Made by a program: the position numbers and the translations under genes
In this document: positions 2,194-7,330 of the stretch, piece after piece
Position numbering within the stretch: position 1 is the first letter of the stretch
Layout of the letters: every line of letters begins with the position of its first letter
Origin: a virus
Taxonomy: Duplodnaviria; Heunggongvirae; Uroviricota; Caudoviricetes
Length of the DNA stretch: 7,330 nucleotides
Strand: one strand, 5' to 3'
Virus record (IMG/VR): IMGVR_UViG_2609459769_000015
Notes under the pieces: generated by a model
Told to the model about the DNA's origin: nothing
The model's input: only the letters and a program-made list of their open reading frames with translations
Databases searched by the model: none

Positions 2194-2244
2194 AAAATCG
2201 CCGCGCTATATTAAAGCCGCTGCAGTTGTTCATATCAGCATGGC

Positions 2245-3102
2245 TCATGCACGCACTCCGTACACGGCAGAACTATCCACGCCACGCGAAGGATCAAATC
2301 CCACCCAGCAGCGCGCCCCAGAAACAGCGATGATTTCTGTTGCAGATTTACTCTCGCCAGCCGACACGCCGATGCTGCGTTTTGCCTTGATGTAGTGGTG
2401 AGTGAAATTTCGATACAGCGAACGGATCAGGGATGTGTCACTGTTAGAAACAATGACTGGATGACCTTCTGATGATCGATATTCAAGAACAGATGCCAGG
2501 TGATACTGGTCATCTTCAGTGAAGCCGTTAGTGTGATAGCCGGAAAACGTACCGTCATAAGGCGGATCGCAATACACCACATCCCCCACCTGCAGCATCG
2601 CCAGCGTTTCATCAAAGCTGGCGCAGATAAACGTTGCTTGCTGGGCTTTCTCTGCAAATGCGCGAATTTCTTTTTCAGGGAAATACGGATTTTTATAATT
2701 ACCGTATGGAATGTTGAAATGCCCGCTCTTGTTATAACGACATAACCCACGGTAACCATGACGATTGAGATACAGGAAATATACCGCTTTCATGAAATCA
2801 GTAATTTCAGTGGAGTAATTAAACTCCTGCCTTATGTTGTAATAAGCCAACTCCCTGTTTGCTTCCTCAAATAAAGCTCTGGCACGAGATATAAACGCCT
2901 CGCAATCAGCAGCAACCTTTTTATAGAGGTTGATTAAATCAGGATTAATATCCGCAACAAGATAGCTGGGGTAATCCGTCTCCATCATCACAGCACAGGA
3001 ACCCGCGAAAGGTTCAACCAGTCGCGGGCCAGCAGGAAGGTGTTTTTTCAGTTCGGACATTACGGCGGTTTTATTTCCCGCCCATTTCAGGATGGTGCTC
3101 AT
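2245..3102 (-). CDS. dam: DNA adenine methyltransferase, Dam family (D12-class N6-adenine MTase), 285 aa
   Basis: Strong resemblance to E. coli Dam along the length: [15 protein letters not shown] (AdoMet motif), [15 protein letters not shown], catalytic DPPY; start ATG at 3100-3102 overlaps the upstream stop in an ATGA junction. Confidence 0.9.
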
Positions 3103-3326
3103 ACAGCACCCCCGTTGTAATGTTTGCCTTTCAGCTCTGCGATTTCCTGACAGGTAATGCAAAGCTGCACACCCGGAATGGCACGGCGGCGTGCTGGCGG
3201 AATTGGCGCTTCACACTCAACGCAAAGCACGCGGGACACGCCCGGCGTTTTGGCACGGGCAGCACGGATATGGCGCTGGCGTTCTTCTTCAACGCGCTGC
3301 TGTACGAGATCCATTGCATCAGCCAT
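3099..3326 (-). CDS. TraR/DksA-family C4 zinc-finger protein (75 aa)
   Basis: CVEC...(17 aa)...CITC four-cysteine motif and size typical of phage TraR-like proteins; start overlaps the upstream gene stop (TAATG). Confidence 0.8.
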   Translation of the reverse strand: MADAMDLVQQRVEEERQRHIRAARAKTPGVSRVLCVECEAPIPPARRRAIPGVQLCITCQEIAELKGKHYNGGAV

Positions 3327-3559
3327 TAGTGGATCTCCTGCGCTTCGTTCTGGATTGCTTCAGCAGTCACACGCAGCAGTTCTGCCGCTTCCACGTGGTT
3401 TAGCTGACGGGATGAGATATGACACGCCAGGCTATCAAGGCGAGCTGCCATTGCTTCAGCCCTTGCCCGGCGTTCTTCCAGACGAGCCTCTGTCAGTAAA
3501 ATATTAAGCCCTGCGTCATCCGGTCCGGTTTTAGTCGTGAGGGTTTCAATATTACGCAT
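3326..3559 (-). CDS. Hypothetical early protein (77 aa), Ala/Arg/Glu-rich helical
   Basis: ATG (reverse complement of 3557-3559) preceded by AGGAG with 8-nt spacer; translationally coupled to the TraR-like gene; resembles small conserved proteins of P2-like early operons. Confidence 0.6.
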   Translation of the reverse strand: MRNIETLTTKTGPDDAGLNILLTEARLEERRARAEAMAARLDSLACHISSRQLNHVEAAELLRVTAEAIQNEAQEIH

Positions 3560-3626
3560 AATCAATTCTCCTGAATTTAGATAAAGGGATGCCCGGCGGG
3601 TTTACGCCATTAATTTCATTAGTTGG

Positions 3627-3968
3627 TTAATTCGGCATGGTTAGCCGTCTGGGAAATAAGCTCACCACTGCACGAAAATGATTCATTGCTTTAATCAGCT
3701 CCCGCTTTTCGTCAGTGGTCAGCTCATTAATGCTGATGCTATGACGTTCAGCTGGAATTTTTGCCATAAAGAATATGGCAGCCAGTGCCCGTTTATTTTG
3801 TTCATTATTGATATCCCGTGGATCACGCATATCTTTAATAAACCGCTCAAGCTCTGACTCAATATTCAGGCCAAAAACTTTCGCCCTTAACTCCGCAATG
3901 TGATTAAGTCCATTCAGGCGTTCACCGGGGCTTAATGGAACAGTTGCTGCAGCGCCATTAATTGCCAT
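3627..3968 (-). CDS. Hypothetical early protein (113 aa)
   Basis: ATG (reverse complement of 3966-3968) with G-rich RBS; ordinary protein-like composition; no family recognised by eye. Confidence 0.55.
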   Translation of the reverse strand: MAINGAAATVPLSPGERLNGLNHIAELRAKVFGLNIESELERFIKDMRDPRDINNEQNKRALAAIFFMAKIPAERHSISINELTTDEKRELIKAMNHFRAVVSLFPRRLTMPN

Positions 3969-3990
3969 ACTTCATATCCCCCAAACGCAG

Positions 3991-4215
3991 CTATCGTTCT
4001 TTGTTCTTACGGTAACGCTCAAGAGGAGATACATTTTTTCGTATCGTCTCTTTAACCTGCTCTCCCCGTAAAAACGTCCCATCCTTTAACGCGAAAAAGT
4101 AACTGCCATCGCCCGACAATGACGGATAGCAACAGAGCAAATCATCTTCAGGTACTGAATAACTCTCCCCTCTGTAACGAAACTGATAAACCACTTCACT
4201 TTCTGCCGCATACAT
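3991..4215 (-). CDS. Hypothetical early protein (74 aa)
   Basis: ATG (reverse complement of 4213-4215) preceded by GGAGAAAG; natural-looking sequence; overlaps the 3' extension of the upstream ORF in another frame. Confidence 0.6.
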   Translation of the reverse strand: MYAAESEVVYQFRYRGESYSVPEDDLLCCYPSLSGDGSYFFALKDGTFLRGEQVKETIRKNVSPLERYRKNKER

Positions 4216-4382
4216 TTGGACTTTCTCCGTTTCCTCGTGGTCAATTCAGACAGCAATTCATCTTGTGAATGACATGGATGCCAGCGTTTTCCATCCTCAC
4301 CCGTGATCCAGCCGTGACCGTAGTGCATTGCCGGGCTTTGTTTTACCAGCAGCGATGCAAATGATGGTTCTTTCGTCAGCAT
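4086..4382 (-). CDS. Hypothetical early protein downstream of cII (position of 186 fil); 98 aa as it stands, but the last ~42 aa look like out-of-frame read-through
   Basis: ATG (reverse complement of 4380-4382) preceded by GAGGTG; N-terminal 56 aa look protein-like, C-terminal part (Cys/Arg/Trp-rich) overlaps the 3991..4215 gene for 130 nt. Confidence 0.4.
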   Translation of the reverse strand: MLTKEPSFASLLVKQSPAMHYGHGWITGEDGKRWHPCHSQDELLSELTTRKRRKSKCMRQKVKWFISFVTEGRVIQYLKMICSVAIRHCRAMAVTFSR

Positions 4383-4389
4383 AAGCACC

Positions 4390-4899
4390 TCACAGCAAAC
4401 CGAATGAAGCACCGAGGCCAGTCACGGTATCAACTGCACTCGCCATCGCAGGGTTAGCCTGTAAACGGGCCTGCAATGAAACAGCAGCCAACGCCATCAG
4501 TCGTGTTACAGAGTTAATGCTGCTGATAGCATCACGACGACCTGCACTGGTTTTTACATCGCCAGATACCGCACCTGCAGCAACACGCCCGATCTCTGCG
4601 GTTGCACTCATGACGTAATGTGGCAGTTTCTCTTTTGCCACCTCATTAATTGGTACGCATGGCAGGCAGTGAATCTGTGCCAGAAAACCATCTACCAACG
4701 TTGAATCTTCAGTCAGATCGGTAAGCAGCCAGATTTCTGGTGCGGTTAATAAATGAGGTTGAGCTGGGTTCAGCTTGTTCCGCAGAATCTGCACATTCAT
4801 GCCCGCACGTTCTGCCAGTTGCACCAGATTGTGGCGCAGTGCGAATGCACGACAGGCTTCATCAAAATGTGGATGTTTGGAAACTTGGTAATCAAACAT
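4390..4899 (-). CDS. cII: Phage 186-type CII lysogeny-establishment activator (169 aa)
   Basis: Sequence [19 protein letters not shown]...[28 protein letters not shown] closely matches what I recall of phage 186 CII; ATG at 4897-4899 (reverse) is preferred over the TTG at 4906-4908 given by the ORF track. Confidence 0.85.
4873..4899. promoter_or_regulatory. Candidate CII operator: inverted 7-bp half-sites ATGTTTG (4873-4879) and CAAACAT (4893-4899), 20 bp centre-to-centre, overlapping the cII start codon; implies a rightward CII-dependent establishment promoter reading antisense through apl toward cI
   Basis: Half-sites read directly; the sequence and two-helical-turn spacing match my recollection of the 186 CII binding site at pE; weak -10-like ACTTAT at 4915-4920. 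Confidence 0.5.
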
Positions 4900-4963
4900 G
4901 GTTTTCAACTCCGAACTTATCGCAAAATCGAACTCAGCGTCTTATTGCGAAAATAGACGTCTA

Positions 4964-5167
4964 TTAAGCAGACAAAGCATCAACAGTCAGAGCAGCCAGG
5001 TTAATCATTACCTTTTCACGTTTTTTGTCTTTACGAAGACGATGACGAGGTAGTCGGCCATCAGCCAACATGTCGTTAATCGTATCAATAGAAAGGCCAG
5101 TCAGTTCGCTATAACGTTCGATTGTGACATGTGGTGTATTCAGAGTAATTGAAATGTTAGGTGTCAT
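4964..5167 (-). CDS. apl: Apl/Cox-family excisionase and transcriptional regulator (67 aa), first gene of the lytic operon
   Basis: HTH segment [25 protein letters not shown] resembles P2 Cox / 186 Apl; position immediately opposite cI across the switch region. Confidence 0.65.
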
Positions 5168-5312
5168 AAGGCAACATTCCTTCTAGATATGGCTTGTGGC
5201 GAGCCGTTGTTTGTCGTGATTAGTAGTGAAGGCTCCAAAAGAACACTTCTGGTTCAACTTTAAGATCGCTTTTGGAATCTGTCAACGAATTTTGGATTTC
5301 TTTGGAGGACTT
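5168..5312. promoter_or_regulatory. Lysis-lysogeny switch region. Candidate leftward lytic promoter (pR-like): -35 TTGACA (minus strand, 5280-5285), 17-bp spacer, -10 TAAAGT (5257-5262). Weaker candidate rightward promoter (pL-like): -35 GTGTCA 5161-5166, -10 TAGATA 5184-5189
   Basis: Hexamers read from sequence; face-to-face arrangement is that known for 186/P2; helically phased TTTGGA repeats at 5271, 5291, 5301 and TGTGGA at 5311 overlap the -35. Confidence 0.45.
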
Positions 5313-5882
5313 GTGGATTTCAATAGCGGCGGTAAGAAAGCCATAGAACGTTTAGTTGAAGCATATGGGTTCGGTACCCGTCAGGCTCTCTGTGATCATT
5401 TAGGTGTTTCTAAGAGCACCATGGCAACGCGCTATATGCGTGATATTTTTCCAGCAGATTGGGTAATCCAGTGCGCCCTTGAAACGGGCACCTCGCTTAA
5501 TTGGCTAACAACAGGGCATGGTTCAAAGCAAGCATCAGCAAATACAAATACTATAGAAGTAGAAAAATATTTATTGTCTGATGGAGCATTGCAGAAAGAC
5601 GGTTTTTATATTTTTGATAAGGGATTTCTACCCTCTACGTTTAAAAAACCTTTTGTCATCACAGATAACAATTCTGAATTTATTTGTGATAAAGAATTTG
5701 ATGATATACGTGATGGTAAATGGGTAATAAGTATTGATGGCGAAATAACGATCCGTGACATTACTCGTTTACCCGGTGGAAGAATCTTCGTCGAGGGTGG
5801 AAACAGAGCCTTCGAATGCAAGATAGAAGACATTGAAATAATTGGTAAAATTATAAGTTTAACAGTCAAGTATGTTAAATAG
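5313..5882 (+). CDS. cI: Phage 186-type CI immunity repressor (189 aa from GTG 5313; the ORF is open from GTG 5226)
   Basis: N-terminal HTH region ERLVEAYGF...CALETGTSLNWLTTGHG matches the 186 CI repressor family; GGAGG (5304-5308) precedes GTG 5313; the C-terminal half is AT-rich. Confidence 0.85.
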   Translation: MDFNSGGKKAIERLVEAYGFGTRQALCDHLGVSKSTMATRYMRDIFPADWVIQCALETGTSLNWLTTGHGSKQASANTNTIEVEKYLLSDGALQKDGFYIFDKGFLPSTFKKPFVITDNNSEFICDKEFDDIRDGKWVISIDGEITIRDITRLPGGRIFVEGGNRAFECKIEDIEIIGKIISLTVKYVK

Positions 5883-5897
5883 TACCGGGAGGAAACT

Positions 5898-6089
5898 ATG
5901 CTTGGTAAGGTATTTTTTGTGGTTTTGTCATGTTCTTTGTTATTAAACCCACTAACTACCTATGCTAGAAATTATCCCTGCTCAGGGAAAAAGGGAGGTG
6001 TTTCTCACTGTACCTCAGATGGCAAATTCGTTTGCAATGATGGAACTATTAGTAAATCCAAAAAAATCTGTACTAAAAACTCACGATAA
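5898..6089 (+). CDS. Small secreted Cys-rich protein (63 aa): signal peptide then a ~40-aa basic mature peptide with 4 Cys; moron between cI and int
   Basis: ATG 5898 with strong GGGAGG RBS (5-nt spacer) 16 bp after the cI stop; hydrophobic N-terminus [18 protein letters not shown]; AT-rich relative to flanks. Confidence 0.6.
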
Positions 6090-6224
6090 CTTTTGCTTTT
6101 ATATCTGCGTCTAAAATAAAAATGAGCCGCAGGTTAACCGCAAAAGTTACATGCTCACATAGCAAAAAGAATAGCCAACTTCATGATGGCTTCAGTGAGA
6201 TGTATGGTCGTAGGATTTCATACA

Positions 6225-6253
6225 TTGACACTGGTTATACATACAGTAAAAAT
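6225..6253 (+). promoter_or_regulatory. Near-consensus sigma70 promoter upstream of int (-35 TTGACA 6225-6230; -10 TAAAAA/AAAAAT 6247-6253) whose spacer is a LexA-box-like palindrome CTGGTTATACATACAG (6231-6246)
   Basis: Read from sequence; 13 of 16 positions match the CTGT-N8-ACAG LexA consensus (CTGG half-site as in ruvA box), with a perfect ACAGTA distal half. Confidence 0.4.
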
Positions 6254-6277
6254 GCTCTCTACTGGAGGGCATTTTTT

Positions 6278-7330
6278 ATGGCAGTACGAAAACTCACCAC
6301 AGGGAAATGGCTTTGCGAATGTTACCCCGCCGGACGTAGTGGGCGTCGTGTGCGTAAACAATTCGCCACCAAAGGCGAAGCTCTGGCTTTTGAGCGCCAC
6401 ACGATGGAAGAAACCGAAGCAAAGCCCTGGCTGGGTGAATCAGTGGATCGTCGAACACTGAAAGACGTAGTTGAGCTATGGTTCAAACTACATGGTAAAT
6501 CTCTGACAGCTGGGCAGCATGTCTATGACAAATTGCTGTTGATGGTTGACGCTCTGGGTAATCCTCTTGCAACCGATCTCACCTCTAAAATGTTTGCCCA
6601 CTATCGAGATAAACGCCTGACAGGCGAGATCTACTTCAGCGAGAAATGGAAGAAAGGAGCAAGCCCGGTCACCATTAACCTGGAGCAAAGCTATCTAAGT
6701 AGTGTTTTTAGCGAACTATCCCGTCTGGGCGAATGGTCGTATCCGAACCCACTGGAGAACATGCGAAAATTCACCATCGCAGAAAAAGAGATGGCATGGC
6801 TTACCCATGAGCAGATTGTTGAATTGCTGGCTGATTGCAAACGTCAGGACCCAATTCTGGCACTGGTAGTTAAGATATGCTTAAGCACAGGCGCACGCTG
6901 GCGTGAAGCCGTAAATCTTACCCGCTCACAGGTGACCAAATACCGAATTACCTTTGTCAGAACGAAGGGGAAGAAAAACAGAAGCATCCCTATCAGTAAA
7001 GAGCTTTACGAAGAGATCATGGCGCTTGATGGGTTCAATTTCTTTACAGACTACTATTTTCAATTTTTATCCGTGATGGAAAAAACGTCTATCGTGCTCC
7101 CTCGCGGTCAACTCACACACGTTCTGCGCCATACGTTTGCGGCGCACTTCATGATGTCGGGTGGAAACATTCTCGCCTTACAAAAAATTCTCGGACACCA
7201 CGATATAAAAATGACTATGCGTTACGCACATCTGGCACCAGATCATCTGGAAACGGCGCTCCGTTTCAATCCTCTGGCAACGCTGCCAAGTGGCGACAAA
7301 GTGGCGGCAGCGGTTGGCATTACCCCGTAA
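6278..7330 (+). CDS. int: Tyrosine site-specific integrase, P2/186 family (350 aa)
   Basis: N-terminus MAVRKLTTGKW...RKQFATKGEALAFERHT parallels P2 Int; catalytic region LSTGARWREA, HVLRHTFAAHF, MRYAHL with active-site Tyr; ATG 6278 preceded by GGAGGG (6265-6270); stop is the last codon of the window. Confidence 0.9.
   Translation: MAVRKLTTGKWLCECYPAGRSGRRVRKQFATKGEALAFERHTMEETEAKPWLGESVDRRTLKDVVELWFKLHGKSLTAGQHVYDKLLLMVDALGNPLATDLTSKMFAHYRDKRLTGEIYFSEKWKKGASPVTINLEQSYLSSVFSELSRLGEWSYPNPLENMRKFTIAEKEMAWLTHEQIVELLADCKRQDPILALVVKICLSTGARWREAVNLTRSQVTKYRITFVRTKGKKNRSIPISKELYEEIMALDGFNFFTDYYFQFLSVMEKTSIVLPRGQLTHVLRHTFAAHFMMSGGNILALQKILGHHDIKMTMRYAHLAPDHLETALRFNPLATLPSGDKVAAAVGITP

Follow-up and report, generated by a model that had tools for sequence, protein, structure and literature searches.

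How is the integrase of a 186-like prophage switched on when its gene carries what looks like an SOS box in a promoter of its own? The window, by which we mean the whole stretch of 7,330 nucleotides analysed here, ends with such a gene. A preliminary description of it had proposed that TTGACA-CTGGTTATACATACAG-TAAAAAT, upstream of int, combines a promoter with an embedded LexA box, so that the integrase would be derepressed by DNA damage independently of the cI operon, which is not how 186 or P2 are understood to work. The sequence and coordinates behind this proposal proved correct throughout, and the proposal itself gains support in silico from the score of the box, its position in the promoter spacer, its conservation and the contrast with 186, PSP3 and Fels-2. 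From the elements in the sequence, with their scores, geometry and conservation, we infer, with reasonable confidence, an autonomous int promoter that would be repressed by LexA and derepressed in the SOS response, and that is probably also activated by CII and insulated from read-through transcription.

Positions 2211-7330 of the window are 100% identical to a prophage integrated beside rcdA in E. coli strain 1283, and the window covers the early region of a Peduoviridae phage of the 186 type. Its genes, assigned from the annotation of strain 1283 and from Pfam, are listed in Table 1 together with the control elements. The gpA part (1-2210) diverges from genomes that are 98-100% identical over 2211-7330, with a mosaic junction close to where gpA meets dam. 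The int frame is open upstream of 6278 back to an ATG at 6122 (6122-6277); a longer integrase of 402 aa starting there was considered and rejected, as it lacks a ribosome-binding site and homologues begin at 6278. The record of phage 4LV2017, for its part, has int annotated about 24 codons too short. Between cI and int lies a variable cargo slot (5883-6199 in the window) that holds different genes in other phages and measures 1.3-2.7 kb in many species: in 813R9 it encodes a 558-aa 'chromosome segregation ATPase' (4341-6017 of our locus L001), and in 4LV2017 a 349-aa hypothetical protein (2313-3362 of L002). The cargo gene of the window, orf63, encodes a Cys-rich product with the appearance of a signal peptide. 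Between orf63 and the int cassette there is also a minus-strand terminator-like hairpin with a T run (6127-6143), with no evident minus-strand gene to terminate.

Table 1. Genes and control elements of the window, in order of position; promoter elements, operators and hairpin are predictions.
Feature	Position	Strand	Remarks
gpA (partial)	to 2248	-	
dam	2245-3102	-	
traR-like	3099-3326	-	
DUF2732	3326-3559	-	
DUF5347	3627-3968	-	
fil	4086-4382	-	
cII	4390-4899	-	Pfam Phage_CP76 3e-42; 69% identity to 186 CII, BLASTP 4e-95
pE-type CII operator, ATGTTTG-N13-CAAACAT	4873-4899		where cII begins; agrees with the annotated CII site of 186 in half-sites, spacing and position
apl/cox	4964-5167	-	
cI, 186-type immunity repressor	5313-5882	+	Pfam Phage_CI_repr, Phage_CI_C; RefSeq
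orf63, small cargo gene between cI and int	5898-6089	+	63 aa; no Pfam family
Left half-site ATGTATG of 186-CII-type inverted repeat	6200-6206		upstream of the -35 in most orthologous modules
Right half-site CATACAT	6219-6225		its final T also begins the -35, as at 186 pE
-35 hexamer TTGACA (consensus)	6225-6230	+	promoter scan
LexA operator (SOS box) CACTGGTTATACATACAGTA, predicted	6229-6248; 16-bp core 6231-6246		HI 5.67
-10 region TAAAAAT	6247-6253	+	AAAAAT with 17-nt spacer or TAAAAA with 16-nt spacer
Hairpin AAAAAUGCUCUCU-ACU-GGAGGGCAUUUUU and T run, holding the ribosome-binding site	6248-6276	+	-17.2 kcal/mol, z -5.6
Shine-Dalgarno GGAGGG, within the 3' arm of the hairpin	6264-6269	+	
int, P2/186-type tyrosine integrase	6278-7330	+	350 aa; Pfam Int_N 3e-32, Phage_integrase 5e-22; same CDS in RefSeq

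Direct reading of the 16-bp core against the LexA consensus CTGTATATATATACAG reproduces the 13 matches in 16 positions that had been reported, the mismatches being at positions 4, 5 and 10, and the motif does sit directly upstream of int, with the end of TAAAAAT 24 nt from the ATG. The preliminary description had also named a LexA matrix score, compared with the genomic background, as one test by which the box could fall. We drew on the candidate SOS boxes of E. coli K-12 that are listed with a heterology index (HI) in Table S1 of PMC12527982. Since the index is additive, its position matrix could be recovered by regression on 140 pairs of site and HI; the rms residual is 0.0002, and the matrix is palindromic and reproduces the values of recA (4.31) and sulA (4.65). 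On this matrix p95 of 186 has an HI of 1.49. The 20-mer of the window is a strong site by the same measure, as its index falls between those of sulA and lexA (6.40) and far under the working thresholds of ~13.6-15: binding is associated with HI <15 (PMC11002266), and the low-HI class of the K-12 list tops out at ~13.6 (PMC12527982, Table S1). Among the 368 K-12 candidate boxes just six distinct sites score better. These six are presumably known SOS boxes, and the window site is stronger than the sites listed at HI 6.40, 6.98 and 6.11, which we take to be the lexA, uvrA/ssb and uvrB boxes. The core is palindromic, of the form CTG-N10-CAG, with an AT-rich centre. Four further CTG-N10-CAG sites bring the count in the window to 5 against 1.46 expected; with HI 16.9-26.3 they were ruled out as LexA sites, and the one upstream of int is alone in being LexA-like. 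By chance, 1.6e-4 to 3.6e-4 sites with HI <= 5.67 are expected in a 7.3-kb window.

Is the box kept in relatives? A search with the Int protein in one genome per species yielded 77 loci, about 40 of which carry a CTG-N10-CAG box 45-52 nt ahead of the int ATG. The 39 distinct int-upstream modules come from about a dozen genera of Enterobacterales (Escherichia, Klebsiella, Raoultella, Citrobacter, Enterobacter, Kluyvera, Serratia, Yersinia, Rahnella, Pantoea, Pectobacterium, Brenneria, Mixta and others), with Int identity going down to ~53%. Throughout these modules ACTG and ACAGT are invariant and the centre is variable, with HI between 2.8 and 11.3; a single relative, L017, has a mutated half-site with GTG for CTG. 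The box always directly follows a -35-like hexamer (TTGACA, TTGACC, TTTACA or TTGAAT), the -10 of the relatives is at the same place (TAAAAT, TTAAAT or TAAATT), and the box is conserved at orthologous positions more than the neighbouring bases are. Invariant ends around a variable centre are the signature of a site that is read by a conserved host protein.

Box and promoter are kept as one unit with int in two contexts, either after cI and variable cargo or after ogr, often behind an intrinsic terminator. Similarity of the window to vB_EcoM-813R9 and 4LV2017, which have different genes between cI and int, starts at ~6200-6220, just 5' of the cassette. In prophages of Rahnella and Pantoea the same cassette is remote from any cI and comes after ogr, the gene of the late activator, with its terminator, and in ESSI2_ev129 it is packed in 77 bp between cI and int. 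Relatives in which int directly abuts cI (L048-L060, L069, L080) have no box. Searched by tblastn, the Rahnella-type and IMG/VR loci gave no match to cI, cII or apl, the early regions lying outside the DNA searched. One of the loci, L038, contains a second copy of the last ~57 int codons (5658-5900), 1.6 kb downstream of the prophage int, with an unrelated 367-aa ORF on the minus strand in between; an earlier integration or a duplication of the target may have left it behind. Within E. coli, the 136-nt cassette region is matched in 1056 of 5426 complete genomes, BL21 and HS among them. The BL21 copy of the prophage (L083 1296-2741) is defective, with gpA and cII truncated and fused by a deletion, and it retains the cI-orf63-int end with the LexA/CII cassette intact.

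Immediately upstream of the -35 we found a further element, which the preliminary description had passed over: the inverted repeat ATGTATG-N12-CATACAT (6200-6225). Its geometry was compared with that of CII sites as given in PMC6593788 and in the annotated 186 record. At 186 pE the CII half-sites are centred at -38 and -58 (PMC6593788); relative to the predicted start at 6260, the repeat in the window has its half-site centres at -38 (6222) and -57 (6203). The two promoters resemble each other in having 7-bp inverted half-sites about two helical turns apart, of which the right one abuts the -35. A cognate cII is present in the same element. They part ways in the core: with its poor -35, 186 pE has negligible basal activity, and it transcribes int along with cI, whereas at the int promoter the consensus TTGACA stands where pE has TGTTGC or TGGTTT, and a LexA operator is present besides. 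Given the repeat, its geometry and the cognate cII, the int promoter resembles one of the pE type to which a consensus -35 and a LexA operator were added. As a consensus -35 is unlike the weak basal core of pE, CII is perhaps dispensable at this promoter.

The alternative that survives best concerns this repeat. It grants the LexA-repressed promoter but takes the repeat for the operator of another protein, or for an RNA or DNA stem left over from an upstream terminator, in which case Int for integration would come from leaky or transiently derepressed expression. The half-sites of the window do differ from those of its own pE at one symmetric base (ATGTATG against ATGTTTG), and they stand 19 rather than 20 bp apart, centre to centre. 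The left one is degenerate in some relatives (e.g. L014, L073, L075), and the repeat folds as a stem in read-through RNA (101-nt fold). Moreover, Rahnella-type prophages carry a third copy, ATGTATG-N13-CATACAA, ~40 bp upstream of their ogr-like late activator gene (L038 2576-2602; IMG/VR loci L087-L113), and on account of this copy the binder in these phages is perhaps an immunity repressor rather than CII. LexA sitting in the spacer might also bar activation by CII in an undamaged, newly infected cell, and the source of Int for integration would then be unexplained. Against these points stands the distribution of the pattern ATGTWTG-N12/13-CAWACAT, which occurs in the window at the int promoter and at pE alone (0 expected by chance) and is confined to the same two places in all E. 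coli-type genomes analysed (~0.02 expected per 31 kb); E. coli-type phages have no third copy. In ESSI2_ev129 half-sites and spacing are identical at the two promoters and of the exact pE type. Furthermore, across the orthologous modules the arms are conserved and the spacers unrelated, and the position relative to the -35 is the same as at pE. On balance we regard a repeat that serves something other than CII as unlikely, though it is the alternative that we take most seriously, and activation by CII remains our preferred reading.

Does the promoter itself work? The scan matched TTGACA-17-AAAAAT at 10/12 positions, and from the -10 a transcription start is predicted at ~6259-6261. The LexA operator lies between the predicted -35 and -10 and overlaps both hexamers. 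Given that int would thereby have a promoter of its own with a high-scoring, conserved LexA site, DNA damage probably turns on the integrase directly. One could argue instead that LexA binds but that TTGACA/TAAAAAT is not a working promoter, so that int would be expressed by read-through from cI/pE, with LexA acting as a roadblock or having no effect. This would agree with the co-transcription of int and cI in 186, PSP3 and Fels-2, and promoter-like hexamers are no more frequent in the region than in shuffled sequence (4 found, 4.8 expected). Nonetheless, the -35, its fixed abutment to the box and the A/T-rich -10 are kept in 39 modules, and the module sits after intrinsic terminators or after unrelated operons (ogr, cargo genes). 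What makes the read-through reading improbable in our view is, in addition, the hairpin with its T run between box and ATG, which would stop or silence the very RNA on which that reading depends.

A hairpin is found at this place in 33 of 35 distinct modules, with a median z of -4.5, unrelated stem sequences and GGAG on the 3' arm; in Rahnella-type relatives it comes without the T run. In the window the GC-containing stem-loop leads directly into the T tract, as in an intrinsic terminator. A rule-based terminator scan of the window did not list it, possibly because the T tract is taken up by pairing in the longest stem. As the 5' arm starts within the -10 or just after it, RNA from the int promoter would lack this arm; RNAs starting at 6258-6262 are unstructured (z ~0). 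With its predicted start point inside the hairpin, the transcript of the int promoter would thus be open for translation. We infer that the hairpin serves as an intrinsic terminator or anti-SD element against read-through RNA from cI and the cargo genes, and since it would terminate or silence such RNA, Int would depend on its own promoter.

Less probable still is that the palindrome is the operator of a phage protein, such as CI, Apl/Cox or Int, and resembles an SOS box by coincidence. Operators are indeed dense in phage regulatory regions, the adjoining inverted repeat is phage-specific, and Rahnella-type phages have a similar repeat upstream of ogr, which is where 186 has CI sites. However, the invariant bases coincide exactly with those that LexA contacts, CTG and CAG separated by 10 bp around an AT-rich centre, and several relatives have near-perfect SOS boxes with HI 2.8-3.8. 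The box is also constant even though the CI proteins encoded beside it are just 33-60% identical, and it is found as well in elements without a detected relative of cI, cII or apl in the 3 kb upstream of int. More specific assignments were examined for the box and rejected. The 186-type CI sites (ATTCAC..GTGAAT) are unrelated to it, as is the Int arm-site consensus YAYCGCCAYTY, CGCCA being absent from 6190-6277, and the attachment site is downstream of int, which leaves the box outside attP. Finally, a functionless chance match in AT-rich intergenic DNA is extremely improbable: the centre of an SOS box is AT-rich like the region, and CTG-N10-CAG does occur five times in the window, yet the expectation for a site of this score is 2-4e-4 and the box is kept across genera although its central and surrounding bases change.

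How does SOS control of int relate to the Tum pathway? The well-known members of the family differ from the window in the way int is placed. In 186 int overlaps cI and the sole annotated LexA site is at p95, in PSP3 int comes directly after orf28, a cargo gene that lies downstream of cI, and in Fels-2 it abuts cI; all three have no LexA box at int and a strong one at tum alone. By contrast, ESSI2_ev129 and DuoHS, a prophage of E. coli HS, have exactly two strong LexA boxes, one at tum and one at int. In ESSI2_ev129, strain 1283, BL21 and HS the second box lies after gpA, upstream of a 62-aa ORF and a DinI-like ORF that are named tumA and tumB in the PSP3 record. Given that the same prophages keep a LexA-controlled tum operon, SOS control of int would be added to the Tum pathway rather than replace it. 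DuoHS is a functional prophage whose induction requires cleavable LexA and tum (PMC12055606), and its int box and repeat are identical to those of the window. The tumA promoter itself (HS, L084 44555-44595; L003 ~1000-1040) carries two overlapping LexA-type boxes, ACTGTAAATATAAACAGTGGTTATACATACAGTA, the second of which has 17 nt (TGGTTATACATACAGTA) in common with the box at int in that prophage. Overlapping double LexA boxes of this kind resemble those of colicin promoters.

Several known systems come close to this arrangement, each in one respect. The p95-tum and tumA/tumB operons of 186 and PSP3 belong to the same family, answer to the same host repressor through an operator that overlaps a promoter, and are retained in the lineage of the window; their target, however, is an antirepressor, and the int gene of these phages is without a LexA box and co-transcribed with cI. 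LexA control of a tyrosine recombinase has precedents in the promoters of integron integrases (intI; Guerin et al., 2009, as cited in PMC3998124) and in a site that LexA binds upstream of an integrase gene in a Firmicute phage; the latter is one Gram-positive site from a metagenome, assayed by EMSA alone (PMC3998124). These share with the window, where it is predicted, the logic of a LexA box in a recombinase promoter that leads to derepression in the SOS response, but they belong to other recombinase families, elements and hosts. The gene studied here is not an integron integrase: it is of the P2/186 type with an Int_N domain and lies at a prophage end, beside rcdA. Unlike in both precedents, the operator is part of a conserved cassette of P2/186-type phages of Enterobacterales and is joined with a CII-type operator. 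A separate int promoter turned on by an establishment activator is known from lambda pI (textbook knowledge and PMC7708051), although the CII protein and its sites are unrelated there and pI has no LexA input. In lambda, Int made by read-through is controlled through sib retroregulation at the 3' end, a job that the 5' hairpin would do in the window. In the literature searched we found no description of a LexA box at an int gene of the P2/186 type.

Taken together, positions 6200-6277 probably form a self-contained, four-layer control cassette for the int gene of a 186-like prophage. A predicted sigma-70 promoter, TTGACA-N16/17-TAAAAAT, would drive int alone. In an undamaged lysogen LexA would occupy the spacer and exclude RNA polymerase, keeping int silent; upon DNA damage, activated RecA (RecA*) would trigger self-cleavage of LexA and int would be derepressed. 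The tumA/tumB operon of the same prophage would be derepressed simultaneously, and the Tum antirepressor would inactivate CI, thereby releasing pR and the excisionase Apl. With int and the tum operon derepressed at the same time, Int and Apl would appear together for excision. After infection, on the other hand, CII bound at the -38/-57 repeat could switch on int for integration, much as lambda CII does at pI. Transcripts arriving from cI and the cargo genes would be terminated or translationally silenced by the hairpin and its T run, while RNA that begins inside the hairpin, at the int promoter, would be translatable. More tentatively, the cassette may be read as a portable switch with three inputs (repression by LexA, activation by CII, and a promoter nested in a terminator/anti-SD hairpin) that would uncouple the supply of integrase from the immunity operon; this wider reading is a good deal less secure than the LexA-controlled promoter at its core.

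If int is under direct SOS control, the regulatory model changes for a very common prophage family, including the prophage of BL21 and the functional, SOS-inducible one of the commensal strain HS. A phage integrase would be added to the enterobacterial SOS regulon, and excision would be tied to DNA damage at two points, through the antirepressor and through the recombinase. This bears on tools that predict the inducibility of prophages from LexA boxes, and the cassette is a compact, dual-input natural promoter that could be reused. It may also be the reason why cargo genes between cI and int leave the expression of the integrase unbroken. Should the reading as a three-input switch be true, P2/186-type phages would be able to hold variable cargo and even to move int across the attachment site to a place behind ogr, and 186-like phages would have both an establishment input like that of lambda pI and a direct SOS input to excision.
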